Shown in pieces: positions 1,893-64,000 of a stretch of DNA of 64,000 nt (position 1 is the stretch's first letter; every line of letters begins with the position of its first letter). The translations under genes and the position numbers were made by a program. Source of the DNA: Minisyncoccota bacterium (GTDB lineage Bacteria; Patescibacteriota; Minisyncoccia; Phycocordibacterales; SBAW01). Below the pieces are notes generated by a model, which saw only the letters and a list, made by a program, of their open reading frames with translations, did not search any database and was not told the DNA's origin. The stretch is taken from NCBI GenBank assembly GCA_035546575.1, contig DASZWN010000001.1, forward strand, positions 49,082 through 113,081. Reading direction: 5' to 3'.

Positions 1893-2225
1893 TTAGCGCA
1901 CAAGCGCGCCTGGGGCGCCCGCTGTTTCAAACAAAGCAAACGGGGTCTCGCCATCTCCGCCGGTTGCAAGAATCATTGCCTGGCTCTCGAGCCCCATCAT
2001 CATACGGGGTGCCAGGTTAGTCACAAACGGGCACTTCTTCCCCACCAAGTCCTGCGGGTTTGGAAAATACGCCGAGATCCCAGAGAGTACTTGGCGCTCC
2101 TCTATGCCAAAATTTACTTTCAGCTTCAAGAGCTTGTCACTGCCCTCGATCTTTTCAGCGCTTACAATCTCGCCAATGCGGATCTCTACCTTTTTGAAGT
2201 CGTCTATTGCTATAGGTTCAGACAT
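1893..2225 (-). CDS. tRNA-binding domain protein (CsaA/EMAP-like, Trbp111 fold)
   Basis: 110 aa reading ...IDDFKKVEIRIGEIVSAEKIEGSDKLLKLKVNFG...MILATGGDG..., the OB-fold tRNA-binding domain found at MetRS C-termini and in CsaA. Confidence 0.7.
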   Translation of the reverse strand: MSEPIAIDDFKKVEIRIGEIVSAEKIEGSDKLLKLKVNFGIEERQVLSGISAYFPNPQDLVGKKCPFVTNLAPRMMMGLESQAMILATGGDGETPFALFETAGAPGALVR

Positions 2226-2234
2226 AAAAAAATC

Positions 2235-2672
2235 TTAGCTTGTTTTGCGGTTGCGGTCGAGATAGCCCTGCAAAATGAGGGCCGCTGCCGAGGCGTCCAG
2301 CTTTGCCTGCGAGGGGGCCTCTTTGCGCGAGCCCTGCCTACCGGCAGGCAGGCGTCCGGGCGTAAATTGGCGTGCCGCCTGCGTACTGGTCATAAACTCA
2401 CGCTCATATTCAACCGGCAGACCGGTTAATTCCGCAATATCATTTTTAAACTGCTCGATATCTTCCATCACCGGGTTTGGCTCGTTTTGGAAGTTGCGCG
2501 ACTCACCTATCACAATTGTTTCCACATTATTTTCTTTTATAAGCGCAATCGTGGCATCTAATGCTCCCCTGTCGCTGGCGATTGTAGTCAGCGGAAAGGC
2601 GACCGAGCCAGTATCATCCGATACTGCCACTCCGATGCGTTTGGTGCCGTAATCAATACCGAGACATTTCAC
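2235..2672 (-). CDS. ruvX: Holliday-junction resolvase-like RNase YqgF/RuvX
   Basis: The C-terminal 146 aa of the 297-aa table ORF read VKCLGIDYGTKRIGVAVSDDTGSVAFPLTTI...ETIVIGESRNFQNEPNPVMEDIEQFKNDI...LDASAAALILQGYLDR, which is the YqgF fold. The longer ORF would overlap tRNA-Ser on the other strand, so I place the start at a GTG (2672..2670). The gene contains an in-frame copy of the palindromic repeat (LPAGRQG). Confidence 0.7.
   Translation of the reverse strand: MKCLGIDYGTKRIGVAVSDDTGSVAFPLTTIASDRGALDATIALIKENNVETIVIGESRNFQNEPNPVMEDIEQFKNDIAELTGLPVEYEREFMTSTQAARQFTPGRLPAGRQGSRKEAPSQAKLDASAAALILQGYLDRNRKTS
2333..2352. repeat. GC-rich palindromic repeat copy (CCTGCCTACCGGCAGGCAGG) inside ruvX
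   Basis: 20-bp near-perfect palindrome matching the family seen at 5967, 20016, 45131, 45992, 55326 and 60599. It reads in frame as LPAGRQ. Confidence 0.8.
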
Positions 2673-2714
2673 CCTTTGAGCATAACGGATAAACAGTGTA
2701 TTGTCTTCTATATT

Positions 2715-2799
2715 GGAGAGGTGGCAGAGTGGTCTATCGCACCTGTCTTGAAAACAGGAGTACCGCAAGGTACCGTGAGTTCGAATCTCACCCTCTCCG
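2715..2799 (+). tRNA. tRNA-Ser (anticodon TGA)
   Basis: 85-nt class II tRNA GGAGAGGTGGCAGAGTGGTCTATCGCACCTGTCTTGAAAACAGG...GTGAGTTCGAATCTCACCCTCTCCG. It has a long variable arm and anticodon loop CTTGAAA. Confidence 0.85.
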
Positions 2800-14325: not shown

Positions 14326-14428
14326 GTGTACTTAGTATTGCAATATTAGGACGGGCTTACAAATAAAAGCTTTAAATAGTAGGACTATTTTGCTATAGTG
14401 CTGTCAAACGCCCCTTGGGGTGTGATAT

Positions 14429-24040: not shown

Positions 24041-24086
24041 ATATGGAAATACTGTAGCACACGGCGAGGCGTGATAGAATTGCTGA

Positions 24087-29493: not shown

Positions 29494-29598
29494 AGTCTGC
29501 ACGGTCACACAACAATACGCTCCGCCCACCCCCGAGTCAAAACAGTACTTTTGTGTACAAAGGTGTGGAGAAACTGGGGATATGCTATAGTCTCCTGT

Positions 29599-38924: not shown

Positions 38925-41075
38925 CTAGTGGGCTGGTTTTGAATGTCCAAAAGCATCATGTCCATCTGATTTTTTAGAGTCATCGTTATTTGGAGAATGA
39001 GATTCTTTATCGTGTCCTTCTTCTTTGTCATGATCTTCTTCACCCCCACCCTCTTCTTCGTGATGATCTTTTTCAAATTGTTTTACCGCTTTCAAAAGGT
39101 TATCGTGTGCGCCTCCTCCCTTCGCCATCTTAAGTACTTTTTCTGCACCTAGTGTTTGAGCACGTGAAAGACGACTATTAAGCCGCGCTGCCAACTTCTC
39201 GAGATTCTCCTTCTGTCGTAGAGAAACTCTGCTGCTACCGACTTCAGTCAGAGACTTAATTTCCTTCTCCTTGTCTTCAGCAAGTTTCTTGCTTACTTTC
39301 GCACTTTCTCTATAGCTATCTGCCGTTGCACCAGTTGATTTTGCTGCAAGAGCTGCAAATTTTATAGCATCACGTCGGGCTTCTTTTAATTCGTCTTTCA
39401 GTCCACCAACTTTTTTCTCATATTCGCCTCGGCCATTTTCCTCGTCATACTCTCTTTCAAACCTTCTTTGTTCACGAGCAACATCTACCGCATCGCCTTT
39501 GTAAGCCTCAGCCTGCTTTTGGTAACCCTTAGCAGCCTCATCAATGGCTTTTGCAATACCACCTTTGCCGCCCGCTTTGCCAAATTCTGTTAACCCGACT
39601 TTTCCTAAAGGATTTCGGAGATCGAGACTGCCTTTCCCAATTCTGTTTGTGTAATCAAATATTCTACCGATAGTACGCGGATTAGATGTAGCGACGCCCT
39701 GGAATCTTTCTGAACGGGAAGCTTCATATGCAACTCTGCCAACGGTATTTCTGTAGAATCGTGCCGGAATAGCAAATCCGACTTTGCCCCCTGCCCAGTT
39801 TCCTGCTTGGGCGCCTATAGCACCCATACCATCGGCGGCTTTCATACCCAGGAAGAGCATTACGATAATGAACCCCAATCGTATAGATATATCAGCAATC
39901 AGTGCAGCTATACCAAGTAGACCATTAGTTGCTCCAGCCACTCCTGTTGCAGCTCCTGTGGGCTGTTGTATGTATGTGACAAATGCCTGGCTTATATTAA
40001 GATCGCCAGCGAACTGCACAATAAGCCAGAAAATAAAGAGAAACACAGCGGGATAGAATGCATGGCTAATAAGTGTTTCTTGCCATTGGTCGTAGTATTT
40101 TTCAAAGCGATGCGAAGCCTTGGCTATAAAAGCCAGGGGTGATGCAACGATAATAAGCCACAGCACTGCAATACGCACAATAAATCGTATGCCTACCGAC
40201 ACAAAGGCGGCGGCAAGGATGAAATATATAACGCCCATAAATATGTAAATGATCAGGAGCGTTATGAATTCGGTAACACCATTGGTATTGTCTTGGAACT
40301 TGCCAAACGAATCCGTACCAAGTATTTTCTGCACGCCTACCGCATTCATAATGCTCGCGGTAAGATCTTTGGTGCCATTTACCGTCGCAGGTTGCCCATT
40401 AACAATCACAGTGGGTACGGCATTATAAAACTGTGCCGCAACAATATTGCCGGCATCTATTACGACTCGAGTAAAGAAAAAGCTGAAGTTGATGATAAGC
40501 GCAATAAATATTACGAAAGCGAGCGTCTGCATCGTGTGGCCTGTGTCCGCTGAGAGTATGATTGTGATCGCAATATAGATAAGTATGAGAATGAACCCCA
40601 TATTAGCTATGTCGCGAGCCGTTTCCCACCCATGGGTGACAAACGTTAGGCCATACGCGGTGCTGTTTATCGATAACTGGGTTGCTACGTTAAAAATGTA
40701 AGCTGCAACATATGCTACAAAACTTCCGAACCCAACCGTGAAGGCATATACAGGTAAAAGAAGACAAGAGCTTATCGAGTTACAAAGAGGGGCAGTATTA
40801 GTAGTTACAGAATTTGCAGATAAACCATGGGCTTCAGCTGCTTGTTTTTCACAGGCTGCCTGATTACCTCCATTGTTGACACATGCTTGTGCTTCAGAAT
40901 TTGCTTGATTACGAGCATTGATAGCATCAATTTGTGCCTGGGTTATGACAGATGCTCCTTGGGCTTTTGGTGTTGCTCCAATCGATGAAAACACAAGTAG
41001 CAGCGTCGCAAGGCACAATAAAGCTTTTGCAGTGCTGCTTAGAAATTTATTTTTTATGCTACTGCCCCAGCGCAT
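38925..41075 (-). CDS. VirB6/TrbL-like polytopic membrane protein with charged coiled-coil C-terminal tail
   Basis: 716 aa with a signal or N-terminal transmembrane segment, then at least 7 transmembrane helices. The last ~250 aa are highly charged (KE/KD-rich) and His/Glu-rich. It sits upstream of PrgI and VirB4, matching the Gram-positive T4SS order. Confidence 0.55.
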   Translation of the reverse strand: MRWGSSIKNKFLSSTAKALLCLATLLLVFSSIGATPKAQGASVITQAQIDAINARNQANSEAQACVNNGGNQAACEKQAAEAHGLSANSVTTNTAPLCNSISSCLLLPVYAFTVGFGSFVAYVAAYIFNVATQLSINSTAYGLTFVTHGWETARDIANMGFILILIYIAITIILSADTGHTMQTLAFVIFIALIINFSFFFTRVVIDAGNIVAAQFYNAVPTVIVNGQPATVNGTKDLTASIMNAVGVQKILGTDSFGKFQDNTNGVTEFITLLIIYIFMGVIYFILAAAFVSVGIRFIVRIAVLWLIIVASPLAFIAKASHRFEKYYDQWQETLISHAFYPAVFLFIFWLIVQFAGDLNISQAFVTYIQQPTGAATGVAGATNGLLGIAALIADISIRLGFIIVMLFLGMKAADGMGAIGAQAGNWAGGKVGFAIPARFYRNTVGRVAYEASRSERFQGVATSNPRTIGRIFDYTNRIGKGSLDLRNPLGKVGLTEFGKAGGKGGIAKAIDEAAKGYQKQAEAYKGDAVDVAREQRRFEREYDEENGRGEYEKKVGGLKDELKEARRDAIKFAALAAKSTGATADSYRESAKVSKKLAEDKEKEIKSLTEVGSSRVSLRQKENLEKLAARLNSRLSRAQTLGAEKVLKMAKGGGAHDNLLKAVKQFEKDHHEEEGGGEEDHDKEEGHDKESHSPNNDDSKKSDGHDAFGHSKPAH

Positions 41076-42867
41076 AGCATTGATTGAGTTTGGTACTGGT
41101 GTCGGAGTTGAGCGCGTTCATCTGTGCCTGGAGCGTGGTGCGGTCTTGCTGGGCGGACGTGATATCGGTCGAGTCGTATACACTTCCAGAGTTTTTAAGC
41201 TGAGCATATGAGGCTGCTGCAGCACGGACCTCAAGCAATGTGGTTGCCGAGAGAACTTGCGTCTGGACAGCTTGGATATCAGCAATATCTTGATTAGCTG
41301 CAGTTATTTTGTTGTTGTACAGCGTAACTTGGCCTTCAAGCTCGGCTATTTTGTCGGCAGTACTCTGGGCCAAGTCAGTTTTATTTGCGGCAGTCCAGCA
41401 ATTGCCAAGCGTAGTAAGGTTTGCCTGAGCATTTTGTATGTCGCTAATATCGCCCTGCTCTACTGCGCCGTACTGTTGGGCGTATTGTACCGAGGTCTGC
41501 ATCTCATCAAGCAGGTCATTTGCCTCGCCTTCTGCTTGCAAATCCTCTGTGCTCAATGATGCGCCGTAGCCATTTTGGCCGTTGCCAAGGTTGGAGAGAC
41601 CCTTATTAAACATCTTAGTGATAAGAGCATTAGTTAGTGCTCCGATGATCTCATCGATGCTTTGGGCAAGATTAAGCTCATTAAGTGTCGACTGCACATT
41701 GGCGTTGAATGCGCCTAGTATTGCGCTGCCTGGCGTTACACAGTTTCCGTCTTTATCTTTTGCGCATAGGAATCCTTGCCCATTGTTGAGCTCTTGCGTA
41801 CTTGCCAGTACTGCACTCCCCCGTGCGCCTTCTATAGCTACCTGCCCGTACATATATGCGCCGAAAGGATTGTTCGTTGGCATGGTGGTAAATGATATGA
41901 GCCCCGGCCACCCGCCTTGCGAGAAGTCACCGCCTGCAAACTTTTCTATGTTGCCGACAACGCCCGAGAGCGTACACGATGGGGCGTTATTGCGCCGCGC
42001 ATAACTCTGTGCAATGGCGATGCGAACTTTAAGCTGGAACGGGCTGCAGAGGAACGCCAGGTTGCTGCCCTCGATCACGCTGCCTGCTGCTTGGTCGGCA
42101 ACATCGTTAAAGAATTTATTGTAGTCTTGCACAAAGGCAGGTTTGCCCTCAAATCCCGAGTTGATCCAGTTGACGGTGTCGTTGGTGATTTTATCTATCG
42201 CAATACGAGCAAGTGCCATCGTGACGCACTTCAAAATGCTATCGGTTTGTTGGTTTGCATGGGTCGAGCTGTCGTTTACATTCACTTGTCCAGATAGTGC
42301 ACCAAAAATAGAGCCGAGTGCTGTGCCCGCTAGCTGGCTTGCGGCAAATTTTGCCAAACAGGCGGCTGCAACACCCGCCAAGCCTGCGCCAAAATTATTG
42401 CCACCCCCGCTCGATACGGTTGCAGGGTCTACGCCAATATACGAAGTACCATACACACTCGTGTTAGTAACCTGGTTGATCGGCGTCGGGTTAAAGAGGC
42501 TCCCTGCTCCACGCAGCGTAAGCGACCCTGAGCCGCTGCTTGAAGTGACGCTTGAACCGTCGAGCCATGTAGCCCCGCTCGGGTTTGCAGAACCCAGATC
42601 GACGTATGAGATAGTGCCGTCGGAGTACCCCCCGCCCGAGCCTTGTCCGCTTACTCCGGTACCCGCGTTCGAGCCAACGGGCACTTGCCCGTTTACATCG
42701 GAGCCGATCGTGCCGGTCGAAGTGTTATTGCGGTCGCCGCCCGTGCCGAGCGTGCCGGTGTCAGTTACCTTTGCTCCCCCACCCGAGAATAGCCAGAACC
42801 ATAGCCCAACGATGAGCGCTAAAATAACGAGCGCTCCGATGATTATATAAAGTATCCTTCTGGTCAT
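41059..42867 (-). CDS. Membrane-anchored large extracellular protein (Gly/Ser-rich N-region, helical C-region)
   Basis: 602 aa with an N-terminal transmembrane helix and a G/S/T-rich linker. The C-terminal half is alpha-helical and rich in Q/N/A. It could be a VirB5-like or tip protein, but there is no firm homology. Confidence 0.45.
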   Translation of the reverse strand: MTRRILYIIIGALVILALIVGLWFWLFSGGGAKVTDTGTLGTGGDRNNTSTGTIGSDVNGQVPVGSNAGTGVSGQGSGGGYSDGTISYVDLGSANPSGATWLDGSSVTSSSGSGSLTLRGAGSLFNPTPINQVTNTSVYGTSYIGVDPATVSSGGGNNFGAGLAGVAAACLAKFAASQLAGTALGSIFGALSGQVNVNDSSTHANQQTDSILKCVTMALARIAIDKITNDTVNWINSGFEGKPAFVQDYNKFFNDVADQAAGSVIEGSNLAFLCSPFQLKVRIAIAQSYARRNNAPSCTLSGVVGNIEKFAGGDFSQGGWPGLISFTTMPTNNPFGAYMYGQVAIEGARGSAVLASTQELNNGQGFLCAKDKDGNCVTPGSAILGAFNANVQSTLNELNLAQSIDEIIGALTNALITKMFNKGLSNLGNGQNGYGASLSTEDLQAEGEANDLLDEMQTSVQYAQQYGAVEQGDISDIQNAQANLTTLGNCWTAANKTDLAQSTADKIAELEGQVTLYNNKITAANQDIADIQAVQTQVLSATTLLEVRAAAASYAQLKNSGSVYDSTDITSAQQDRTTLQAQMNALNSDTSTKLNQCYALGQ

Positions 42868-42869
42868 AG

Positions 42870-43763
42870 TTATTGCAAAGAAAGAAGCGTAGCCCAGGCG
42901 CTTCCGGGCTCGTCCTTAGTAAAAAGTATACCGTTTTGTTTAAGTATCTGCGCAATGTTTATAAACACACGCGTCGTCTCGTCTACAAGTGACTGATAGG
43001 TCTGGAGGCCGGCTATGCTGCGCAATGGGTCGCTTACCGCAACCTCCATATCCGAGTATGCTCCCGCGGCGTATGAAAGGTTGTTTAGGATCTGTAGATG
43101 GAGCGGCGCAAGCGTAGGCGGTACGGGCACTTTAGCTAAGTCGCGTACGAGCGCTCGGTACTCTTTTTGTATATTTGCGAGCTTTGCCACTTGCGCTGGG
43201 TCGTTAGAATCGGTTAGATACCCCAACGCAAAAAGCGTGTCGTTGTAATTTGCACCTGGGTGCGCAGCCATCGCAGTCATAACAGCGTTGCCGTATGCCT
43301 TAAGGGCAATAGGCGTCTGGGTTGAGAGGGTTAGGTCGCTTGAAGCGTACGCTGGGGGGTCCTTCTCGCCTTGTATCTGCGCCGTTGCTTGTGCAATAAG
43401 TTGGTTTTGGGTCGGAATATCACTGCCAAGACCCTGTGATTTGGCATCAAATAGGTTGACCAGCAGGCTCTGAGCCACCGTGGTGGTCAAATTAGTACTT
43501 TTTGTGGCGTCTAAGAGTGTGTCTACTGTAGAGCTTGCAACCGCAGCAGTGATAGCGCTCTTGCCTTGTATGGCAAGGAGTGTCTGCTCCCAATTTGGAT
43601 CAACACGTGATAGATCTCTCGGCGCCGTAGTTGCAGTGAGAGTCGAGGGCAAACCTCGCGGTGCTCCCGTTAAATATTGCGCTGCGAGCACAAGTGCGCC
43701 TGACGCGGCAATTGAGCCGACAATAAGCACAAACTGCGCGCTAGGGAGAAAGCGGCTAGGCAT
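42870..43763 (-). CDS. Bitopic membrane protein (first gene of the T4SS-like operon; VirB8-like topology)
   Basis: 297 aa with a single N-terminal transmembrane helix and then a soluble domain. This topology is compatible with VirB8/PrgL-type proteins. Assignment is by topology only. Confidence 0.4.
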   Translation of the reverse strand: MPSRFLPSAQFVLIVGSIAASGALVLAAQYLTGAPRGLPSTLTATTAPRDLSRVDPNWEQTLLAIQGKSAITAAVASSTVDTLLDATKSTNLTTTVAQSLLVNLFDAKSQGLGSDIPTQNQLIAQATAQIQGEKDPPAYASSDLTLSTQTPIALKAYGNAVMTAMAAHPGANYNDTLFALGYLTDSNDPAQVAKLANIQKEYRALVRDLAKVPVPPTLAPLHLQILNNLSYAAGAYSDMEVAVSDPLRSIAGLQTYQSLVDETTRVFINIAQILKQNGILFTKDEPGSAWATLLSLQ

Positions 43764-43805: not shown

Positions 43806-44313
43806 TATGCGCACACTTCTAACATCTGCACTGCTCGCTACACTCCTCCTACCATCTATTGGCTTCGCGCAGTCATCTACAAGCACTGCCACAACTACTT
43901 CGCAATCGAGTAACTCGAGTAGCGGTGCTGGTACTGCCCTGTTGATTGGGGCGGGTGTCACTGCAGGTGTAGTAGCAGCTAAGGCGCTCTCGTCAGGCAT
44001 CTCTGGTCCTCCGGGGATTTCTTTCGGTGGTCGAGTATTGACTGCCCTTCCATGCATTAGTCCGCTTGGACCCTCGCTCGCCATTACTATCAAACCTGCA
44101 GGTGTCTTTCCGATCAATTACATTTGGACTCCAGCAACCCTGACTAAGCCAACGCAGCTTTCTGTGCCTACCCCGGGTGGGCAAGTACTCGGTATTGCCG
44201 ATATCCCCTACGCTTGTTGGAACCCTATTAAAGGCGGCCTCTTCGGACTCTTTACGTTCTTGAGCTACTCGTACGGTCTGCGCATGCAGATTGTCGGTAC
44301 TAGCCCTTATTGA
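43806..44313 (+). CDS. Small secreted S/T-rich protein with a central hydrophobic segment
   Basis: It has a signal peptide MRTLLTSALLATLLLPSIGFA. The mature part has an S/T-rich stretch and then LLIGAGVTAGVVAAKAL. It diverges from the T4SS-like operon. Confidence 0.4.
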
Positions 44314-45086
44314 TGCCGGCTTAGCGCAAGCCAAGTTTCAAGCGGCATATCTTCTGCACGCGCGTTTTCGGTTACTCCAATATTCTGCAGAATACCAGAA
44401 TATTCTTTCCCCAACAGAGGCTCTAAGTTGCGTCCAAGCAATTTGCGTTTGTGGGCAAAGCCAGCATGTACGATTTCAAAAAATCTTTTTTCTTGATTTG
44501 CATTCGCAAAATTCTTGCGTGAGATATTCGTGATACTCAGTATCGCAGAGTCTACTTTGGGCGGCGGAGAAAATGCGCCAGCCGGAACGGTATGCATATA
44601 TATTGGAGTGCCGTACGCTTTAACCGAGAGTGAGAGAATGCTTTCTTTTTTTTCGCGCGCAATACGCTCAGCGACTTCTTTTTGTACCAAAAGTGTCATT
44701 GCACTTGGTTGTACACCTGATGACAAAAATTTTTCCATAATCGCACCCGTGATGTAGTACGGAATATTTGCAACAAGTTTATATGCACGGTCTTTGAGCT
44801 CAAGCGTCTCTGCGCCAACCTCCAATGCGTCACCCTCGATCAGCGAAAGTTTTTTCTCGCGAATATCCTCGGCAAATGTTTTTTGTAGTATCGGAATTAG
44901 CCGCGAATCTTTTTCGATTGCAACAACTTCTGCGCCGCGCGCGATAAGTGCGGCGGTGAGCGCGCCGTCTCCAGGCCCGATTTCGAGTACGCGCTCCCCC
45001 GGCTTAATGTCGGCCGCATCGACGATCATGTTCAGATAATGCGTCGAGTGTAAAAAATGCTGCCCGAGAGATTTTTTCTGAAACAT
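44307..45086 (-). CDS. rsmA: 16S rRNA (adenine1518/1519-N6)-dimethyltransferase
   Basis: It reads MFQKKSLGQHFL..., has SAM motif I VLEIGPGDGALT, and an NIPY motif. Confidence 0.9.
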   Translation of the reverse strand: MFQKKSLGQHFLHSTHYLNMIVDAADIKPGERVLEIGPGDGALTAALIARGAEVVAIEKDSRLIPILQKTFAEDIREKKLSLIEGDALEVGAETLELKDRAYKLVANIPYYITGAIMEKFLSSGVQPSAMTLLVQKEVAERIAREKKESILSLSVKAYGTPIYMHTVPAGAFSPPPKVDSAILSITNISRKNFANANQEKRFFEIVHAGFAHKRKLLGRNLEPLLGKEYSGILQNIGVTENARAEDMPLETWLALSRHQ

Positions 45087-51025: not shown

Positions 51026-52276
51026 CTACGGAAGCGGGGTGATAGGCGGATTTTTAAGGCGCGAGATTATCTCGCGCAACGTTACCTCGTTGGTGGTGAT
51101 AACCAGTGTTTTGCGGTCGAGGAACGACCACAAAAGCAAAATATTGCCTGCACTGTCTTGTATCACGCGCGCGTCATGATTTTCGACGATACGGTCAATA
51201 AATGTTGTCGATGCCGTGTAATTTGGAACAGGCGGTGTAGTAGTTGTCGTTGCAGTTGAGGTCGCAGTGCTCTGTGTAGTAGTTGCGTTTGGTTGAGTGG
51301 CCATAATTTGGAGCCGCGGAGTGCGAGCAAACAAGGGTGCCAGATCTTTTTGCATGTATGGCTCCCAATTGAGAATCGCGGCATAGGCTTGTTCGTACGA
51401 GTCGGCCTTAAGGATCAAGAACGGCTGATTTTCTTCGTATACGTGTATGCCAAGCACAAACTCGCTAGGATCAATGGTCCGCGTAAGCGTGTCCGGCACG
51501 TTGGGAGAGAGAAACTGGAGCACTTCTTGAGCGCTAAGCGGGTCGATCGCTTGTTCACCGCTCGCAGTGGTCGAAGAGTAAGCCATGTATAAACGCTCAA
51601 TAAGGCCAAGTGGAAGTTTAACCGCTTTGCGCTCGTCGTTGAGCGCGTTTACCACGTCGGCGTGCGTAAGCTTTTTGTCCGGAGCAATCGTGAGCACCTT
51701 GGTGCCATCGATAGTGATAAACGGCGCCGCTACTGCAGAAGGTACATTCACCGTCTTGGGCGGCTGGAGTACAAAAAGGATAAGACCAATCGCAGCAACA
51801 ACAAGCACTGCGCCGCCTGCCAGCATGCCGGTACGCTTGAGCACCCCTAGCCAATCAAAAGGTGCTGCGGGCGGTGGTTCTTCTCCCAAACTGGTAACTT
51901 CCCGCCGCGCCGCCTCTGCAGCAGCAATAGACACCACCGACATATTTTTGTTCTGGACCAGCTTCTCGATATCGCCCTGATATGTCTCGACCGGTTTTAC
52001 AAAGGCATCTTCTTTTTTTTGCTCTGGCGCAGGCGTTATTGGTGCGGGAGCCGGTTGCTTGGGCAGCGTCGCAGTTTGCTCTTGGGCTACAAGCGCGCCG
52101 GCACTGACGCGCTGTGCACTATCCACCGTTTTTCCGGGCGCGTCTTTTTTTGGTAGAAGTATTTTACTGAGGTCGACGCCGCCAGCTCCTGATTGCGGCA
52201 CGGGCACGGGAGGTGCCGGCGGAGTATTAGAACTCCCTCCTTGGGGGTCTTGGGGAACGATCGGATTGAGATCCAT
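51026..52276 (-). CDS. Membrane-anchored hypothetical protein (Pro-rich N-terminus, one transmembrane helix, extracytoplasmic domain)
   Basis: 416 aa. A central transmembrane helix reads MLAGGAVLVVAAIGLILFVL. A T-rich linker sits near the C-terminus. The annotated start overlaps the pnp 3' end by 50 nt, so a later start is possible. Confidence 0.45.
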   Translation of the reverse strand: MDLNPIVPQDPQGGSSNTPPAPPVPVPQSGAGGVDLSKILLPKKDAPGKTVDSAQRVSAGALVAQEQTATLPKQPAPAPITPAPEQKKEDAFVKPVETYQGDIEKLVQNKNMSVVSIAAAEAARREVTSLGEEPPPAAPFDWLGVLKRTGMLAGGAVLVVAAIGLILFVLQPPKTVNVPSAVAAPFITIDGTKVLTIAPDKKLTHADVVNALNDERKAVKLPLGLIERLYMAYSSTTASGEQAIDPLSAQEVLQFLSPNVPDTLTRTIDPSEFVLGIHVYEENQPFLILKADSYEQAYAAILNWEPYMQKDLAPLFARTPRLQIMATQPNATTTQSTATSTATTTTTPPVPNYTASTTFIDRIVENHDARVIQDSAGNILLLWSFLDRKTLVITTNEVTLREIISRLKNPPITPLP

Positions 52277-54419
52277 TAGGATTGGTTGACGGCACTAAGC
52301 CCTTTCGAGACGCAAAGTCCGGATCAACAGCCTTAATTGAGAGATTGATGCGGCCCTTCTCGTCTATCTCCTTTATCATAACCCGAACTTTGTCCCCTAC
52401 CGCTACCGCACTTGATATTTTGTCGATACGAAACGGCGCAACTTCAGACACATGCACAAGACCCTCGGCGTCTTTGCCTGGGCCGATGCGTACGAATGCA
52501 CCAAAGTCCATGAGGCGTGTAACTTCGCCTTCATAAATCTCTCCGGCTTTATACTCTTTAACAAGCGCTTCGATCATTGCCTTGGCCATCTGGGCTGCGC
52601 CGTTTTTGCCGGTGATAAATACCGAGCCATCGTCTTCTATCGTAATGTCATCCACCTCGGACATATCGCGGATGTTGTTGATAGTCTTGCCGCCGCCGCC
52701 GATTACCAAGCCGATCTGATCAGGCTTGACCTTCATGGTTACAATTTCCGGTGCGCGGGCAGATATGGTTGCGCGAGGTGCGGCGATCTCCTTCTCAATC
52801 GTGTCGAGAATCTGAAGCCGTGCTTTTTTAGCACCGTCGAGCGCCTCGACAAGGATCGGCACCGGAATGCCGTCGAGCTTAATGTCGAGCTGGATTGCAG
52901 TGATGCCCTCGCGGGTGCCAGCCACTTTAAAATCCATGCCGCCAAATTCGTCCTCGGGTCCTTGAATGTCGGTGAGCACGCGGTTCTCTCCGTTGTGCGT
53001 CATGAGACCCATCGCGATGCCGGCAACCGGAGCCTTAATCGGCACGCCGCCGTCCATGAGCGCGAGCGTCGAGGCGCAGACAGAGCCCATCGAGGTCGAT
53101 CCGTTTGATGCAAAACACTCAGAAACGAGGCGGATCGTGTATGGAAAGGTCGCAGCATCTGGTATCACCGCTTCGAGCGCTTTCTCCGCAAGAGCGCCGT
53201 GGCCTATTGCGCGGCGGTTGATGCCGCCCATGCGGCCCGTCTCTCCAGCGGAGAACGGCGGGAAGTTGTAGTGATGCATGAATCGCTTTTTAACATCATG
53301 TTCCTCCATCGTGTCGACAAGCTGGCTGTCGCCGGGGCCGCCGAGCGTGAGCGCGGTGAATACGTGTGTGCCTCCGCGATAAAAGATACCGCTGCCGTGA
53401 AGTATCGGCGAAATGCCGCCGGCTTTAGCAAACAATGGGCGGATCTGGTCGAACGGACGGTTGTCAGGGCGCTTGTTGTCCTCGATAGCGCCGCGATGGA
53501 TCTCCTCGTCAACCTTGTCCTCCATAAACCGCTTTACCAAACCTGACTTAATTTCTTTAAGCGCCTCATCAGCGGCAACTGCATCCATCCACTCATGCTG
53601 TACCTCGTGTATTGCGTCTTTGCCGGCAATACCGCAGAAGACAGCATCGCGGACCTTAGTAGCAAACTGTGCCTCGTAGAGTGCCGTGAGTGCTGCCGGG
53701 ATCTCCGGCTTTGCGGCATCGGTTTTTGCCTTGCCGACCTCGGCAATAATCTTTTTCTGCCAATCTAAAATTTTGTTGTGCTCCTCTACCGAGAGTGCAA
53801 AGCCCGCGGCAACATCCGCCTCGCTTGCCTCCTGCCCTGCGACCTCGATCATGTTAATAGTGCCGTCTTTGCCGCATGCCAAAATGTCGAGTGTCGTTTC
53901 TGCCGCATCGCGCTGCGCGTACGTTGGGTTGACGATAAAGTCTCCGCTCCCCTGCTTGCCGATGCGCACTGCGGCAACAGGCCCGCCCCACGGAATTTGT
54001 GAGGTTGCGAGCGCGAGGCTGGCTGCATTGACTGCAACCACGTCAGGATCCTCCTCGTCGAGCGCGAGCACCGTAATAACTACCTGGATCTCGTTGCGGA
54101 TATGCGATGGGAACAGCGGACGGATCGTGCGGTCTACCACGCGGCCCGAGAGTGTTGCTTGCTCGCTTGGCCTGCCTTCGCGCTTGATAAAGCGGCTGCC
54201 GAGGATTTTGCCTGCTGCGTAAAAGCGTTCCTCATAGTCGACCGTAAGCGGAAAGTAATCGATATCGTCGCGCGTCTTCTGCGACATGACTGCGGTTGCG
54301 AGTACTGCGGTGTTGCCGTAGCGCAAGATAACCGAGCCGCTTGCCTGCTCTGCCAGGTCGGTAAACTCGGCAATCATCTTCTTGCCGCCCACCTCTGTCT
54401 CAAATGTTTTGCTTTGCAT
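52227..54419 (-). CDS. pnp: Polyribonucleotide nucleotidyltransferase (PNPase)
   Basis: 730 aa. It has two RNase PH domains, a KH domain and a C-terminal S1 domain (GEIYEGEVTRLMDFGAFV), plus a basic tail. Confidence 0.9.
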   Translation of the reverse strand: MQSKTFETEVGGKKMIAEFTDLAEQASGSVILRYGNTAVLATAVMSQKTRDDIDYFPLTVDYEERFYAAGKILGSRFIKREGRPSEQATLSGRVVDRTIRPLFPSHIRNEIQVVITVLALDEEDPDVVAVNAASLALATSQIPWGGPVAAVRIGKQGSGDFIVNPTYAQRDAAETTLDILACGKDGTINMIEVAGQEASEADVAAGFALSVEEHNKILDWQKKIIAEVGKAKTDAAKPEIPAALTALYEAQFATKVRDAVFCGIAGKDAIHEVQHEWMDAVAADEALKEIKSGLVKRFMEDKVDEEIHRGAIEDNKRPDNRPFDQIRPLFAKAGGISPILHGSGIFYRGGTHVFTALTLGGPGDSQLVDTMEEHDVKKRFMHHYNFPPFSAGETGRMGGINRRAIGHGALAEKALEAVIPDAATFPYTIRLVSECFASNGSTSMGSVCASTLALMDGGVPIKAPVAGIAMGLMTHNGENRVLTDIQGPEDEFGGMDFKVAGTREGITAIQLDIKLDGIPVPILVEALDGAKKARLQILDTIEKEIAAPRATISARAPEIVTMKVKPDQIGLVIGGGGKTINNIRDMSEVDDITIEDDGSVFITGKNGAAQMAKAMIEALVKEYKAGEIYEGEVTRLMDFGAFVRIGPGKDAEGLVHVSEVAPFRIDKISSAVAVGDKVRVMIKEIDEKGRINLSIKAVDPDFASRKGLVPSTNPNGSQSDRSPRPPRREF

Positions 54420-54516
54420 TCGCTTGGTAAGCGAAGAGGGTGAATTTTAGGTCTCAAGCGGTCTTGAGAATCTACCTATCCACCCGCTTCGCGATTACTT
54501 ATATATAGAGACTGTA
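54420..54516 (-). promoter_or_regulatory. pnp 5' leader with stem-loop (TCTCAAG-CGGT-CTTGAGA)
   Basis: About 100-nt untranslated leader between the upstream terminator and the pnp ATG. It contains a 7-bp hairpin, consistent with an RNase III / PNPase autoregulatory leader. This is inferred by analogy with E. coli pnp. Confidence 0.35.
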
Positions 54517-54551
54517 GCAAAAAAGCTCCGCTGTTTCCAGCGGAGCTTTTT
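54517..54551 (-). terminator. Rho-independent terminator after the NYN-domain gene
   Basis: Minus-strand reading: AAAAAGCTCCGCTG-GAAA-CAGCGGAGC followed by TTTTTTGC. Confidence 0.75.
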
Positions 54552-54558
54552 GATGCTG

Positions 54559-55209
54559 TTATTCCCCAGACATTTTTATTGCCGGATCTTCCCCTTCAAA
54601 GTCATCGGGAGCCTCGGTGTTTTCTGGGCTGGTGTCAGCATTCTGTGCGCGATCGTCGGAACCGGAGGTAAAGCCCGGTATCCACCCGCGGTTACTGCCG
54701 CGGTAGCCTATCAAGTAGTTGCGCGGGTCGTCGCACATGTCGATAAACTCATCCGCCACTTCGCGCAGCTGGCCCGATGACGACTTGCCGAACGCGATGA
54801 CCTCAACCTGGCAGCCGTGCGCATAGCGCAGATACTCTACGAGCGGGACAAAGTCGCCGTCGCCGGTTGCAAGGATGATAGTGTCGAGCTTTTGCGCCAT
54901 CGCAACGATGTCGATAGTCGTGCCCAGGTCCCAGTCGGCCTTTTTAGCGCCGCCTGCAAACACGCGGATGTCTTTGACCTTGGTTTCGATGCCGAGCTTG
55001 TTAAGCGCCTCAAAGAAGCCTTTTTCGTCCTCCGACTCGGTGCGGATAACGTAGGCTACTGCTCTAATGAGCTGGCGCCCGGCAAGCGCTTCTTTAACTA
55101 CATTGCCAAAGTTTACCTTTGCGCGATAGAGATTTTTAGCGGAGTGGTAGAGATTTTGCGTGTCTATAAAAATGCCGACACGCTGGCTTTTATGCTTAAT
55201 GATTGCCAT
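54559..55209 (-). CDS. NYN/LabA-like domain protein (predicted RNase) between rpsO and pnp
   Basis: It reads MAIIKHKSQRVGIFIDTQNLYHSAKNLY...ILATGDGDFVPLVEYL, the NYN (DUF88/LabA) signature with conserved Asp residues. The C-terminal tail is acidic. Confidence 0.75.
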   Translation of the reverse strand: MAIIKHKSQRVGIFIDTQNLYHSAKNLYRAKVNFGNVVKEALAGRQLIRAVAYVIRTESEDEKGFFEALNKLGIETKVKDIRVFAGGAKKADWDLGTTIDIVAMAQKLDTIILATGDGDFVPLVEYLRYAHGCQVEVIAFGKSSSGQLREVADEFIDMCDDPRNYLIGYRGSNRGWIPGFTSGSDDRAQNADTSPENTEAPDDFEGEDPAIKMSGE

Positions 55210-55310
55210 AGAAATATGTAGAACTAACTAACGTAAATAAAGAGTGAACACTTCAGGAACAAAATAGGGAATATAAAAATCGACCTTCCCTACCCATATA
55301 CTACACCCGA

Positions 55311-55347
55311 GCGAGAAAAAAATTTCCTGCCTACCGCAGGCAGGCGC
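55311..55347 (-). terminator. rpsO terminator formed by a palindrome-family copy (CCTGCCTGCGGTAGGCAGG + T7 on the minus strand)
   Basis: Just 3' of the rpsO stop, the minus strand reads CCTGCCT-GCGGT-AGGCAGG then AAATTTTTTT. This is the 19-bp (1-nt shorter) variant of the repeat family. Confidence 0.7.
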
Positions 55348-55353
55348 TACTTC

Positions 55354-55620
55354 TTATTTCTTCAAACCCAATTTCTTAACAAGTGCGTTGTAGCGCTTCT
55401 TGTTTGAGCCTTCGAGATACTTCAAATGTGTGCGGCGGTCTGCAACCATCTGGAGGAGGCCGCGGCGCGAGTGCTTATCTTTATCGTGTTTGCGCAAATG
55501 CGAGGTAAGCTCGTCGATTTTCTTAGACAAAAGGGCTACCTGTACCTCAGGCGAGCCTGTATCGGTGTCATGAATCGCCGCCTCCTTTATTACTTTAGTC
55601 TTTTTCTGCTTGGTGAGCAT
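55354..55620 (-). CDS. rpsO: 30S ribosomal protein S15
   Basis: 88 aa. A conserved region reads ...GSPEVQVALLSKKIDELTSHLRKHDKDKHSRRGLLQMVADRRTHLKYL. Confidence 0.9.
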   Translation of the reverse strand: MLTKQKKTKVIKEAAIHDTDTGSPEVQVALLSKKIDELTSHLRKHDKDKHSRRGLLQMVADRRTHLKYLEGSNKKRYNALVKKLGLKK

Positions 55621-55662
55621 GAAGACATACTATCACAAGGTGTCAATTTACGCAAGCCCCGT

Positions 55663-55714: not shown

Positions 55715-56284
55715 CTAACTTGTGAGTTCAGGCGGCTCCACACTGACGAACTTTCCGCACTTGAACCGAGGCGGGACAAGCCACGCCGGATCCTGAGAAT
55801 AGAAATAGTGGTTCCCCACTATCCCCGCTTGCCGGAAGGTCGTTGCCATCCAGCACCGGTTCTCCGGGTCGCTCGTATCCGGGTTCATGTAATACCGGGC
55901 ATTCTTGAGCAACTCGCCAGGAGGTTCAAAGAATCCGAGCGCTACCCACGTAGCAATGGCTTTCGCCTTTTCCCACGCAAGCCCCGACGGAGCCTTTTGT
56001 TTGATCTTGGGGTCGCACGTCCACGAGAACTGGCAACCTTTAAAGACCACACCCTTGATCGTCTTGCCGCCCCATTGCTTGCGGTTGTCTGCCGCTCGCA
56101 TCAAGGTAACGTAGGCGATCATGTATTGGCCCAACTCGGGCTCCCCGCGGCCTTCGTGATACACGTTGAGGGCCATCGGGATAATCTGCGAGCGATAGAA
56201 GGCCTCTTCGCTCGTTTGATCTGATCTCGCCTCCCCTGCCGCACACATCGCAAGCAGAAAGGCAAGTACGCACAGATACCGCAT
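55715..56284 (-). CDS. SleB/CwlJ-family (Hydrolase_2) cell-wall hydrolase
   Basis: It has a signal peptide (MRYLCVLAFLLAMCAAGEA). The family signature reads ALNVYHEGRGEPELGQYMIAYVTLMRA...VVFKGCQFSW. The start is taken at the internal Met. Confidence 0.65.
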   Translation of the reverse strand: MRYLCVLAFLLAMCAAGEARSDQTSEEAFYRSQIIPMALNVYHEGRGEPELGQYMIAYVTLMRAADNRKQWGGKTIKGVVFKGCQFSWTCDPKIKQKAPSGLAWEKAKAIATWVALGFFEPPGELLKNARYYMNPDTSDPENRCWMATTFRQAGIVGNHYFYSQDPAWLVPPRFKCGKFVSVEPPELTS

Positions 56285-56395
56285 TTTCAAGCTCCGTTCG
56301 ATGGTTGTAGCCATCGACCCCCGGAACACTAACCGATATCAAGTATAGCATACTACAACACATTTGTCAAGCATTAGGGAAACCATGATAAAATT

Positions 56396-57316
56396 GTGCG
56401 ACGCATGGCCTCTAGCGATTTAAAAACACTAAAAGTCGAGTTTCTGGAGTACTTAGAGATAGAGAAAGGCCGCTCTATAAAGACGGTCGAGAATTACGAC
56501 CGCTACCTCTCCCGCTATCTCGCGTTTGCTAAAGTCTCCTCCCCTGCCGCCATTACTGAGCGCTCGGTACGCGAGTTCCGCATCCACCTCAACCGCCAGC
56601 AAGGTATATCCGGCACGATGAAGCACAAGACCCAGAACTACTACATGATTTCTCTGCGCGCGTTCCTTAAGTTTTTGCGCAAGCGCGAGATAGAGTCGCT
56701 CAACCCCGAGCGCATCGAGCTAGCCAAGATCGGTGCTCGCGACCTCGACCTAATATCGAGCGAGGAGCTCAACCGGCTTATCAATGGCCCCAAAGGCGAC
56801 TCGCTCACCGCGCTGCGCGACAAAGCTATCATGGAGCTTTTTTTCTCGACCGGTTTGCGCGTATCGGAGCTCACCGGCCTTAATCGCGATCTCGACCTCT
56901 CGCGCGACGAGTTTAGCGTGCGCGGCAAGGGCGAGAAGGTCCGGGTGGTGTTTCTCTCCCCCGCTGCCAAGGCTGCGATAAAAAAATATCTCGACAAGCG
57001 CGGCGACATAGACGACGCGCTCTTTATACAAATGGGCAAAGCATCCAAAACTGCTAAACAATTGCGGCTTACTCCCCGCTCGGTGGAGCGCATGATCAAG
57101 CAGTATGCAACCAAGGCCGGCATCACCCGCAAAGTAACCCCGCATGTGATCCGCCACTCTTTTGCGACCGACCTGCTAGAGAGCGGCGCCGATCTGCGCT
57201 CAGTGCAGGCGCTCTTGGGCCATGCAAACATTGCGACAACCCAGGTCTATACGCACATCACCGACAAACACCTGAGAGAAATCCATAAAAAATTCCACGG
57301 CCAGCGGAGGAAGTAA
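56396..57316 (+). CDS. Tyrosine recombinase, XerC/XerD family
   Basis: 306 aa. It has a core-binding domain and a catalytic domain with R...HxxR...Y (RHSFATDLLESGADLRSVQALLGHANIATTQVYTHI). Confidence 0.85.
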   Translation: MRRMASSDLKTLKVEFLEYLEIEKGRSIKTVENYDRYLSRYLAFAKVSSPAAITERSVREFRIHLNRQQGISGTMKHKTQNYYMISLRAFLKFLRKREIESLNPERIELAKIGARDLDLISSEELNRLINGPKGDSLTALRDKAIMELFFSTGLRVSELTGLNRDLDLSRDEFSVRGKGEKVRVVFLSPAAKAAIKKYLDKRGDIDDALFIQMGKASKTAKQLRLTPRSVERMIKQYATKAGITRKVTPHVIRHSFATDLLESGADLRSVQALLGHANIATTQVYTHITDKHLREIHKKFHGQRRK

Positions 57317-57371: not shown

Positions 57372-57746
57372 CTAGTGCGCGGGGGAAAGATCAAAGAACA
57401 GGTCTGCACCTATTTGGCTATGCCGGACGGCGCGGATAGTGTTCCGTTTTCCGCTCGTAATCTCTTCCCTGAGAAGTAATTCAGCACACTCGCCATTGCT
57501 GAACTCTTGCTCAAGAAGACGGCAGAGATCCTGCTGACCTTCACGGCTCATTGCGCCGATGAAAAGGTGCACGTCCTTCGAAGTGGTGCCAAGCACCCAG
57601 TTGGCACCAAGCCGATCGTTCTTTACGTACGTTCGGTACACTCGCGCTCCTTGGGAGGCAATTCGCGCAAGATCAGTTACGACCTTGTTGAGGTAAACAT
57701 ATTCAGGGTGGTCACCATTGGGCCGTGCCACTTGAACTACACGCAT
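57372..57746 (-). CDS. Hypothetical protein
   Basis: ORF 57372..57812 with the start likely at MRVVQVARPNG. It has no recognisable motif. Confidence 0.3.
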   Translation of the reverse strand: MRVVQVARPNGDHPEYVYLNKVVTDLARIASQGARVYRTYVKNDRLGANWVLGTTSKDVHLFIGAMSREGQQDLCRLLEQEFSNGECAELLLREEITSGKRNTIRAVRHSQIGADLFFDLSPAH

Positions 57747-57873
57747 TGCAGATTCTCCTTTTTCGTAGGATCCGCGGTAGCGTCGAACCCGCATACCTAT
57801 CGAGAGGAACAAACGACGCTACCTACAGATTACCAGTAAAAATCAGATATGTCAATTATGGTATTCTGAGGCC

Positions 57874-59000: not shown

Positions 59001-60473
59001 CTAATCTACGAAGTGTTTTTTGCGGATTTCTTGTATATCAGCCTCCTCTGCGGCATCTTTTTTCTCCTTTCCCTCTTCACCAAGTGTTCGAAGTTTTGTA
59101 TCTGAAAGCTTAGCCAGCTCCAGAGTTTTCTTTTCCAGAAACTCTTTTGTGTTTAGGTCCGGGTCATCGAGCACAAGTTCAAGGAGGGCATGGAGTATCC
59201 ACCCAATGCGCGGGCCGGGGCTTTCACGTGTAACATCCATCACCCCTTTGCCATCGATCTTGAGCATGCTGACTGAAATCGGGTCTCGGAGTGCCTGGTC
59301 TATCATGGCTTGATACTTGCGTAGCCGGAATGGCTGCTCCTTGGGCCTCCCTGTCCCTATCCGATCACAGATACGCAATTGGACCAGCTCCTCGATGTTT
59401 TCACGGGAAACATTGGTGATAACCCGGCGTACTGCCGAAAGGGTTACCTTGTCTGGGTCGGAAAAGAACATATGCCACCGTACCAGCTTCTCTGTCTTAT
59501 CAATAGTTTCACGTGAAAAATGGAGATCCTCAAGCGCCTTTTTGGTGATACGGGCCCCTACTACATCGTGGCCATGGAACGTCCAGTCCCCCTTCTCCTC
59601 GGACCATCGTCGGGCCTTTGGCTTCCCCACGTCATGAAACAGCGCTGCTAGGCGTACCTCAAAGCTCCACCCCTTATCGGCGGCATGCTGGAGCGAGCGC
59701 ATATTGTGCTCAAAAACGTCGTACGAGTGGGCCTGGTTCTGCTCTACTCCAATCCCTGCTTCTATGTCAGGTGCTATGTAGCGCAAAACCCCTATGCTGT
59801 GGGCCAAAACAAGTGCTTTCATAGGCTTTGTAGAGTTAAGTATCCGGACAAACTCATCGCGAATGCGCTCTCTGGATATTTTGGCCAACTGAGAGGCATT
59901 TTTAGCCATGGCTGCCCGAGTTTCCTCCTCGATAGTGAAGTTGAGTTCTGCAGATATCCGGATAGCTCGCAGGATGCGCAGGGCGTCCTCCGCAAAGCGC
60001 TCGTTAGGATCTCCTACCGCGCGGATCAGATTGTCCTTTATGTCCTTTATACCCTCGTAAAGGTCAACCAGCTCGTTCTTGCTCGGGCTATAGGCCAACG
60101 CATTGATAGTAAAGTCGCGACGTTTAAGATCGTCCTCGAGCTTTTGGCTAAACTGCACACTGTCGGGTCGACGAGCGTCGCTATACTTACCTTCTAGCCT
60201 ATATGGGGTCGCCTCTATCACTTGTAAGGTCTCATCTGTTGTCTCAGTGACTATGCCTACGGTGCCAAAATCGTTGGTATAGAAAGTATTTTCAAATAAC
60301 CCTTGGATTTGCTCAGGATTGGCGTTTGTAGTGATATCCCAGTCCTTAGGGCGCTTCCCTATCAGTAGGTCGCGTATGCAGCCGCCCACCACCCAAGCCT
60401 CAAAGCCAGCATTTTCAAGCTTTTTTGTTACTTTAAGCACTTCTTCAGGGATTTGGCTTTGCCGCACTTGCAT
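59001..60473 (-). CDS. cca: CCA-adding tRNA nucleotidyltransferase with HD domain
   Basis: The head domain reads AWVVGGCIRDLLIGKRPKDWDITT (GG...D.D) and matches PolyA_pol. A C-terminal HD motif (HD(x)GK) is present. Confidence 0.85.
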   Translation of the reverse strand: MQVRQSQIPEEVLKVTKKLENAGFEAWVVGGCIRDLLIGKRPKDWDITTNANPEQIQGLFENTFYTNDFGTVGIVTETTDETLQVIEATPYRLEGKYSDARRPDSVQFSQKLEDDLKRRDFTINALAYSPSKNELVDLYEGIKDIKDNLIRAVGDPNERFAEDALRILRAIRISAELNFTIEEETRAAMAKNASQLAKISRERIRDEFVRILNSTKPMKALVLAHSIGVLRYIAPDIEAGIGVEQNQAHSYDVFEHNMRSLQHAADKGWSFEVRLAALFHDVGKPKARRWSEEKGDWTFHGHDVVGARITKKALEDLHFSRETIDKTEKLVRWHMFFSDPDKVTLSAVRRVITNVSRENIEELVQLRICDRIGTGRPKEQPFRLRKYQAMIDQALRDPISVSMLKIDGKGVMDVTRESPGPRIGWILHALLELVLDDPDLNTKEFLEKKTLELAKLSDTKLRTLGEEGKEKKDAAEEADIQEIRKKHFVD

Positions 60474-63875: not shown

Positions 63876-64000
63876 ATGAATCGCACATCTATCGTCAGTA
63901 TTGTAGCACTCCTCGTTATTGCGGCTGCATTTGGCGTCTGGGTTTGGTACGCCAAACCTATTGTTAAGGGGCCAGCCTTTCAGCACCCGCTCGCGGGCGA
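63876..64000 (+). CDS. Hypothetical membrane protein, 5' fragment running off the window end
   Basis: ATG at 63876 gives MNRTSIVSIVALLVIAAAFGVWVWYAKPIVKGPAF..., an N-terminal transmembrane helix. Confidence 0.3.
   Translation, partial: MNRTSIVSIVALLVIAAAFGVWVWYAKPIVKGPAFQHPLAG

Follow-up and report, generated by a model that had tools for sequence, protein, structure and literature searches.

The genes for ribosomal protein S15 (rpsO) and polynucleotide phosphorylase (PNPase; pnp) are separated by a gene for a NYN/LabA-type protein in a 64,000-nucleotide stretch of DNA from a Minisyncoccota bacterium (contig DASZWN010000001.1), which as a whole is called the window below. The explanation that we favor, at a probability of about 0.6, is that the interposed gene encodes a candidate housekeeping nuclease of the LabA/COG1432 group that is linked to rpsO, and that pnp is a separately controlled neighbor. 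The NYN gene is an old, vertically inherited and strongly constrained resident of the rpsO locus and not a local insertion. The pnp gene is predicted to be a unit of its own, with its own promoter-like element and leader. This leader carries a 5′ untranslated region element that is specific to pnp and moves with pnp, not with the NYN gene, when the two are separated.

All three genes lie on the minus strand. They are rpsO (88 amino acids (aa), 55620..55354; Pfam PF00312 Ribosomal_S15, E-value 1e-30; TIGR00952, 109 bits against a cut-off of 64 bits), the NYN/LabA-type gene (216 aa, 55209..54559; PF01936, COG1432), whose product is a predicted metal-dependent endoribonuclease, and pnp (730 aa, 54419..52227; NF008805, 790 bits against a cut-off of 471 bits), in which Pfam places two ribonuclease (RNase) PH domains, a KH domain and an S1 domain. 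The interval considered here, 54420..55353, runs precisely from the rpsO stop codon to the pnp start codon, and its 934 bp comprise the 651-bp NYN gene and two spacers. Strand and order are those of the classical rpsO–pnp operon, in which pnp follows rpsO immediately on the same strand; here, the NYN gene is interposed. An initial annotation, made by reading the sequence alone, had described the gene as a predicted LabA-like RNase of 216 aa inserted into this operon. The identity, size and position hold, and the notion of a local insertion gives way to an arrangement that is conserved in relatives and ancient.

The NYN protein matches PF01936 over profile positions 1–144 of 145 (E-value 1e-33; 117.3 bits, with a gathering score of 24.2). 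This is its only Pfam match at E ≤ 0.01, a search in which PF05991 (NYN_YacP/Rae1) was not matched, and its homologs are named ‘LabA/DUF88’ or ‘NYN domain-containing’ by their sources. Names carried by the closest homologs put the organism within Patescibacteria, near Adlerbacteria/Paceibacteria. Among solved structures, the nearest in sequence is VPA0982 of Vibrio parahaemolyticus (2qip; E-value 8e-23). An AlphaFold (AF2) model built on 78 homologs has a mean predicted local distance difference test score (pLDDT) of 88.7, with a folded core spanning residues 1–170, mostly above 90, and a tail at residues 172–216 that scores about 60. When this model is used as a Foldseek query, the first match is again 2qip (E-value 2.5e-16; target-normalized template modeling (TM) score 0.91), which places the core in the PIN-like, three-layer α/β/α fold, followed by the NYN domains of human and mouse MARF1 (target-normalized TM about 0.74). 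The full-length Pfam match, the fold and the signature residues DxxN, DWD and GDGD are common to the window protein and the LabA-like NYN family, represented by 2qip. The subfamily to which the window protein belongs differs from that family in being locked beside rpsO, in being conserved at the level of a ribosomal protein and in having lineage-specific disordered tails with conserved ends. In addition, a scan of all representative proteins returns 3,386 clusters at E ≤ 0.001 and only 175 at E ≤ 1e-30; therefore, the rpsO-linked proteins form a compact subfamily within the large LabA/COG1432 group.

Putative active-site residues are conserved among the homologs. D16, N19, D94, D109, D117 and D119 are invariant in 74–78 NYN homologs that are 30–89% identical and include 2qip, and D92, W93, D100, G116 and G118 are at least 90% conserved in the same set. 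In the MARF1 NYN domain (PDB 6fdl, 5yaa), which has the same fold, the counterparts of D16/N19, D94 and D119 are D178/N181, D246 and D272. That domain has been shown to be a Mg2+/Mn2+-dependent nuclease of single-stranded RNA that needs its conserved aspartates, and it has a conserved asparagine just after strand 1 (PMC6217404). The two proteins are, however, only 16–19% identical, and MARF1 needs LOTUS/OST-HTH RNA-binding domains, whereas the window protein has none. By its fold and its invariant residues, the NYN protein looks like an active nuclease, most likely a Mg2+/Mn2+-dependent endoribonuclease acting on single-stranded RNA. Unconserved catalytic aspartates would have refuted the initial annotation; D16, D94, D109, D117 and D119 are invariant, and the PIN-like fold is confidently predicted.

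The position of the gene was followed in the best 80 of 573 relatives found in a scan with one genome per GTDB species, using tblastn with the window proteins as queries; individual loci are given L numbers where they have to be told apart. In all 80 loci, rpsO lies directly upstream of the NYN gene on the same strand, with a hit-to-hit gap of 11–804 nt (median 148). The position of pnp is looser: it lies within 500 nt downstream of the NYN gene in 21 loci and 0.5–4 kb downstream in 25, in 22 it is missing although the downstream sequence extends for at least 4 kb, and in the other 12 the contig is too short to decide. Where the NYN gene and pnp are separated, the intervening genes are mutually unrelated and often on the opposite strand. 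Reading of their sequences, with no domain search run, gives LexA-like, TrmB-like, PIF1-like helicase, TerC-like membrane protein, phosphoribosyl pyrophosphate synthetase-like and other products, and they share no function; a common role for these genes was rejected on account of this heterogeneity. As the rpsO–NYN pair is never broken while the NYN–pnp pair is looser, the pairing under selection is that of S15 with the NYN protein.

The same arrangement appears in samples gathered by other routes. Among metagenome loci retrieved via the pnp leader motif described below, and not via the NYN gene, rpsO–NYN is present in 23 of the 25 that are decidable and is clearly absent within 8 kb in the other two (L151 and L157). 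More distant NYN proteins, 41–44% identical to that of the window, occur in the order rpsO–NYN–pnp in L086 and L088, and in L090 the contig ends within the gene that comes after rpsO–NYN. A Magasanikbacteria locus (L211) keeps rpsO–NYN, with a NYN protein 54% identical to that of the window, and has no pnp downstream. Two loci from relatives of P0198, some of which are named Uhrbacteria by their sources, have rpsO–NYN–pnp on contigs of 189 and 768 kb (L215 and L216). Some of the more distant relatives with this arrangement are named as ABY1-class. The gap between rpsO and NYN shrinks to 3–40 nt in other lineages and is only 3 nt in L216. The initial annotation had allowed that the gene might be missing from this position in all relatives and scattered at random; instead, it is conserved beside rpsO. 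Homologs about 40% identical also occur in other settings that are not beside rpsO.

Sequence conservation was compared within the same 80 genomes. The median identity to the window proteins is 69% for the NYN protein, 69% for S15 and 60% for PNPase. NYN identity co-varies with that of S15 and with that of PNPase (Spearman 0.63 each), which argues for vertical inheritance of the NYN gene.

Two further NYN homologs were met in this survey. In L215, a second, shorter paralog (183 aa; 2217..2768, minus strand) lies 0.8 kb upstream of rpsO, on the strand opposite to it. A 413-aa homolog, 52% identical to the window protein, is encoded on a contig labeled Nanoarchaeota (P0146/L213), where it adjoins a family-B DNA polymerase gene and not rpsO. 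This homolog could represent inter-domain transfer between bacteria of the candidate phyla radiation (CPR) and DPANN archaea, or mis-binning.

The predicted independence of pnp begins with its promoter. An extended −10 element, TGCTACAGT, located by exact match at 54511..54519 on the minus strand, abuts the U run of the NYN terminator. As a 9-mer, TGCTACAGT was considered as an over-represented word and rejected, as at one mismatch it is not enriched (16 matches, 11.4 expected), so the argument for a promoter rests on positional enrichment instead. Of 61 instances of the leader motif, 47 have a TGNTANNNT element no more than 70 nt upstream, where shuffles give 6.8, and the distance is mostly 13–28 nt. 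Near-copies of TGCTACAGT are found at 14391..14399 and 29583..29591 on the plus strand and at 24051..24059 and 63900..63908 on the minus strand; one of them precedes a tRNA gene by 30 nt, and they fit the general promoter consensus.

The spacer between the NYN gene and pnp folds at −68.8 kcal/mol (RNAfold; z = −8.6), and none of 200 shuffles folds as well. Within it, a conserved leader hairpin at 54427..54498 on the minus strand consists of an outer helix, GGAUAGGUAG, a variable hairpin, CCUAAAAU(C/U) and the return of the outer helix, and it is matched by a covariance model at 54490..54433 with 52.9 bits. The pnp AUG follows 8 nt after the hairpin, without a Shine–Dalgarno sequence. The architecture emerged when the 130-nt regions preceding pnp were folded for the window and 48 related loci (49 sequences in all). 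It recurs as a variable outer helix, GGAUAGGUAG, a variable hairpin, CCUAAAAUC and the 3′ arm of the outer helix, is 58–70 nt long and ends 8–20 nt before the AUG, again without a Shine–Dalgarno sequence. In an alignment of 30 instances, compensatory changes are seen at 15 of the 19 consensus pairs. The covariance model finds the motif in 30 of the 46 pnp-bearing related loci and in the window, one match per locus and always just upstream of pnp. It finds no other match in 874 kb, which includes the rest of the window and all of the loci that lack pnp.

An independent sample was obtained from metagenome contigs by an exact-pattern scan followed by the covariance model, yielding 31 instances of at least 30 bits. 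The scan pattern fixed the two conserved strands only, not the helices. In 26 of the 31, the position of pnp can be decided, and in every one of these it starts 10–70 nt after the motif; the remaining five are four instances at contig ends and one low-GC match without pnp that is probably spurious. In this set, 95.8% of cells are paired, compared with 83.4% when shuffled, where none of 500 shuffles gets as high, and with about 50% if the partners are slid by one column, and eleven pairs change on both sides. Together, the 30 related loci, the window and the 26 metagenome loci bring the motif to about 57 instances. The covariance model has no match in the ABY1-type loci sampled, so the motif appears to be restricted to the sampled Paceibacteria-type loci.

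The leader has no counterpart in Rfam. Only tRNAs reach Rfam gathering scores in the window, and between 54300 and 55800 there is no minus-strand match over the leader even at E ≤ 10. A plus-strand match to GcvB (25 bits, with a gathering score of 42 bits) was dismissed as driven by the terminator. Three known motifs were compared with it by inspection only, and none fits. A k-turn was set aside for want of tandem G·A pairs beside a bulge of 3 nt. The G·U/G-C site that S15 has in 16S helix 22 differs in its flanks, and about half of the leader sequences have G-C at the equivalent pair. With 5S loop E, the resemblance is limited to one strand. A second conserved type of pnp leader is present about 130 nt upstream in L032, L056, L061 and L080, reading UUCAAUUUUUGAU, a hairpin, AUCAAGAAUUGAA and then CUACGGGGCA. 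In some lineages, this type seems to take the place of the main motif.

In E. coli, rpsO lies upstream of pnp and ends in a terminator, and pnp, with a promoter of its own, is preceded by a long leader hairpin through which RNase III and PNPase autoregulate it. The window resembles this arrangement in the single strand, the rpsO terminator, the predicted separate pnp promoter and a leader hairpin just upstream of the start codon. It differs from it in the interposed nuclease gene and in an rpsO that is predicted to be leaderless, so that no upstream S15 operator would be possible. The window hairpin also differs from the E. coli pnp leader in its conserved purine-rich internal loop, and the two show no sequence relation. 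By analogy, the conserved leader is most likely a post-transcriptional operator, and we regard it as a candidate for that role.

The signals around rpsO itself were read from sequence. A predicted promoter at 55627..55655 on the minus strand has a −35 element, TTGCGT (55655..55650), a 14-nt spacer and an extended −10 element, TGATAGTAT (55635..55627), which ends 6 nt before the ATG. In 70 of 77 related loci, a TGNTANNNT element ends 6–10 nt ahead of the rpsO start codon, with TTGC(G/A) at −35. With the −10 so near to the ATG, the rpsO mRNA is predicted to be leaderless, and this would leave no room for a classical S15 operator in the 5′ untranslated region, or for autoregulation through it, in these bacteria.

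The rpsO gene is followed by an intrinsic terminator at 55316..55344 on the minus strand, found by a terminator scan, with an 8-bp GC-rich stem (55344..55326) in the stem-loop CCTGCCTGCGGTAGGCAGG and then AAATTTTTTT. Downstream of it, a tentative and weak −10 for the NYN gene, TAGTAT, can be read at 55298..55303 on the minus strand, with no properly spaced TG and no good −35. Close relatives have TATACT or TACTAT at the equivalent site, and the strict extended −10 pattern is present in just 27 of 77 rpsO–NYN spacers. After the NYN gene, a second terminator at 54515..54551 on the minus strand has a 14-bp stem, AAAAAGCTCCGCTG/CAGCGGAGCTTTTT (54551..54520), topped by a GAAA loop and followed by a U run; because A/U tracts join the stem, it escapes the consensus scanner, and it was revealed by RNAfold. 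These results agree with the separate terminators and the structured pnp leader that the initial annotation had described. Its description of the rpsO terminator as derived from a palindrome is not upheld, as the sequence occurs once in the window and is not a repeated element. We infer that read-through from rpsO provides part of the expression of the NYN gene and that its own weak promoter provides the other part.

The explanation favored here joins what was observed (the identities of the genes, the fold, the conserved residues, the statistics of gene order and a leader that is conserved, covarying and specific to pnp) to nuclease activity, substrates, transcript structure and any contact of the NYN protein with PNPase or the ribosome, which we infer. 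The NYN gene would have taken its fixed place directly after rpsO in an ancestor shared by at least two classes of Patescibacteria, Paceibacteria and ABY1. Its expression would be tied to that of the leaderless rpsO by partial terminator read-through, supplemented by the weak promoter, and the near-zero spacing in some lineages may offer a further route to coupled expression. Such coupling would link the level of the NYN protein to ribosome synthesis. The protein would then cut rRNA precursors, mRNAs or both internally, and the resulting 3′ ends would be trimmed by 3′-exonucleases such as PNPase. The pnp gene may be a remnant of an ancestral rpsO–pnp pair that is now a separate unit, with its leader hairpin as the presumed operator in a control like PNPase autoregulation in E. 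coli.

Several points weigh against this explanation. To our knowledge, no bacterial PF01936/COG1432 protein has a demonstrated nuclease activity or substrate, and the cyanobacterial namesake, LabA, is known only from genetics, as a circadian regulator. The second aspartate of MARF1 (D215, at the end of strand 2) has no evident counterpart in the NYN subfamily. The function of the bacterial PF01936/COG1432 (LabA) group is still listed as unknown in a survey of the PIN superfamily (PMC5499597). The constant adjacency to rpsO could reflect convenience of expression and not a shared function. The 144-nt rpsO–NYN spacer of the window contains a good terminator, and co-transcription is not assured. 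A hairpin with a T run can be detected after rpsO in about half of the related loci and after the NYN gene in about half, so clear terminators are present in only about half of the loci and the predicted transcript architecture is variable. Finally, the role proposed for the leader is purely by analogy, and no known protein-binding motif was recognized in its conserved AGG/AA internal loop.

An alternative, which we regard as a tentative possibility, makes the NYN protein a ribosome-biogenesis nuclease tied to S15. Here, it would process, for example, the 16S rRNA precursor or the unusual rRNA inserts and spacers of CPR bacteria on the assembling 30S platform, and pnp would be there by inherited synteny only. 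In archaea and eukaryotes, small-subunit rRNA is cut at its 3′ end by the PIN-like protein Nob1, and B. subtilis has a NYN-type protein, Rae1/YacP, that acts on the ribosome; both count in favor of this alternative. Rae1/YacP (PF05991) resembles the window protein as a NYN-superfamily nuclease with a connection to the ribosome, and differs from it in Pfam family and gene context. The alternative is also favored by an rpsO–NYN adjacency that is invariant in the 80 loci, persists where pnp is gone (22 loci and L211) and tightens to a few nucleotides elsewhere, by a NYN core as conserved as S15, and by published gene-neighborhood work that links bacterial NYN genes to genes of tRNA and rRNA maturation (PMC5499597). 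Against this, adjacency alone cannot separate a functional link from shared expression, S15 is of ordinary length with nothing pointing to a new partner, and the window holds no rRNA operon from which a cleavage-site logic could be argued. In addition, the Nanoarchaeota-labeled homolog adjoins no ribosomal gene.

The initial annotation had proposed an RNA-decay module with pnp, and in its strong form this alternative, which we consider unlikely, is a dedicated ‘mini-degradosome’ in which the NYN protein makes the initiating endonucleolytic cut and its disordered acidic tail docks PNPase via a terminal peptide. Wherever pnp is present, the order is NYN and then pnp (46 of the 80 loci, 23 metagenome loci, L086, L088, L215 and L216). 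The acidic tail of the initial annotation is real: residues ~169–216 of the window protein include 11 acidic and 4 basic residues, are predicted to be disordered by their low pLDDT, and carry a WIPGF motif and the C-terminal peptide EDPAIKMSGE. NYN proteins diverge past residue ~168, and their tails range from 2 to ~250 aa. A net-acidic tail of 30 aa or more is found in 25 of the 46 pnp-bearing loci and in none of the 22 loci that lack pnp in at least 4 kb, an association (Fisher p = 5e-6) that comes down to only 2–4 independent lineages after clustering, with the p value inflated by shared ancestry. Two tail ends are conserved, DPAI(K/R)MSGE in the clade of the window and VVGSDTD in a second clade, both preceded by an aromatic-(I/L)-P-x-F motif and confined to pnp-bearing loci. 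These peptides and the aromatic motif look like docking motifs, and the resemblance to a PNPase docking peptide is a weak hint that makes them candidates only.

A comparison can be made with RNase E, which in the E. coli degradosome has an unstructured C-terminal scaffold with a PNPase-binding microdomain. The likeness lies in a candidate endonuclease, a predicted disordered tail with a short conserved end and a gene beside pnp. The catalytic folds, however, are unrelated, and the NYN tail is only ~45 aa long and missing in many relatives. Against a dedicated NYN–PNPase pair, 21 of the 46 pnp-bearing loci have no such tail, pnp has its own predicted promoter and leader, and unrelated genes part NYN from pnp in 25 loci and pnp is missing from the NYN locus in 22 more, whereas rpsO and NYN are never parted. 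Gene order thus backs an S15- or ribosome-coupled role at least as well as a decay module with PNPase. Such a module is possible, with the tail as a hint, but the case for a tie to S15, to ribosome synthesis or to RNA processing in general is stronger; the partner that is conserved is rpsO and not pnp.

A bolder combination seems improbable to us. Here, the rpsO-linked NYN protein would be the main endoribonuclease initiating decay or processing in much of the CPR, recruiting PNPase via DPAIKMSGE or VVGSDTD where pnp is kept, so that a PIN-like, two-protein degradosome would stand in place of an RNase E/Y/J core, and the pair, or PNPase alone, would feed back via the pnp leader.

The remaining alternative, that the NYN protein is not a housekeeping RNase at all and is instead a non-catalytic LabA-like regulator or a selfish or defensive PIN toxin inserted by chance in the rpsO–pnp spacer, draws on LabA being known only as a regulator, on the many PIN-like proteins that are toxins and on some ~40%-identical homologs in mobile-looking contexts beside rep and integrase-type genes (L082–L085), and is very improbable given that the full set of acidic residues is invariant, that the window shows no adjacent small antitoxin-like gene and no flanking repeats, that the gene keeps its position in two classes, its identities following those of S15 and PNPase, and that the NYN protein is conserved as a ribosomal protein is. 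A VapC-type PIN toxin–antitoxin module in particular was rejected, as the neighbors are rpsO and pnp with no small antitoxin gene and the position is fixed in all 80 relatives.

A housekeeping nuclease candidate linked to rpsO would matter beyond this locus. The rpsO–pnp locus and the NYN family as such were known already; a search of the literature, within the library available to it, found no paper on the rpsO–NYN arrangement, on the pnp leader motif or on the RNA-processing machinery and RNases of Patescibacteria. These bacteria account for a large share of bacterial diversity, and their RNA processing is essentially unstudied. A protein as conserved as S15 and never parted from rpsO is a clonable candidate for a core RNase of Patescibacteria, and it would, for the first time, give functional access to the very large LabA/COG1432 family of bacteria. 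The pnp leader is a new and well-supported candidate cis-regulatory RNA, with compensatory changes and a strict association with a single gene, and is suited to RNA family databases. The main value of the analysis lies in these two testable candidates, one RNase and one regulatory RNA, for a poorly understood radiation.

The surroundings of the locus add some minor observations. A conserved 416-aa protein without a Pfam match is encoded at 52276..51026 on the minus strand, overlapping the 3′ end of pnp by 50 nt, and in most related loci its homolog (22–57% identity) follows pnp, or directly follows the NYN gene where pnp is missing. Other open reading frames without a Pfam match, of 716, 602, 297 and 146 aa, lie at 38925..43763 and 57372..57812 on the minus strand. 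Upstream of rpsO, a cell-wall hydrolase gene (56329..55715, minus strand), identified from the open reading frame list and a profile search, separates rpsO from a XerC/XerD-type tyrosine recombinase gene (56396..57316, plus strand); in the distant relatives L090, L215 and L216, a gene of this recombinase type is divergent upstream of rpsO. Two more genes on the minus strand of the window encode RNA-related proteins, a CCA-adding enzyme/poly(A) polymerase family protein with an HD domain (59001..60473) and a KsgA/RsmA-type 16S rRNA dimethylase (44307..45086).

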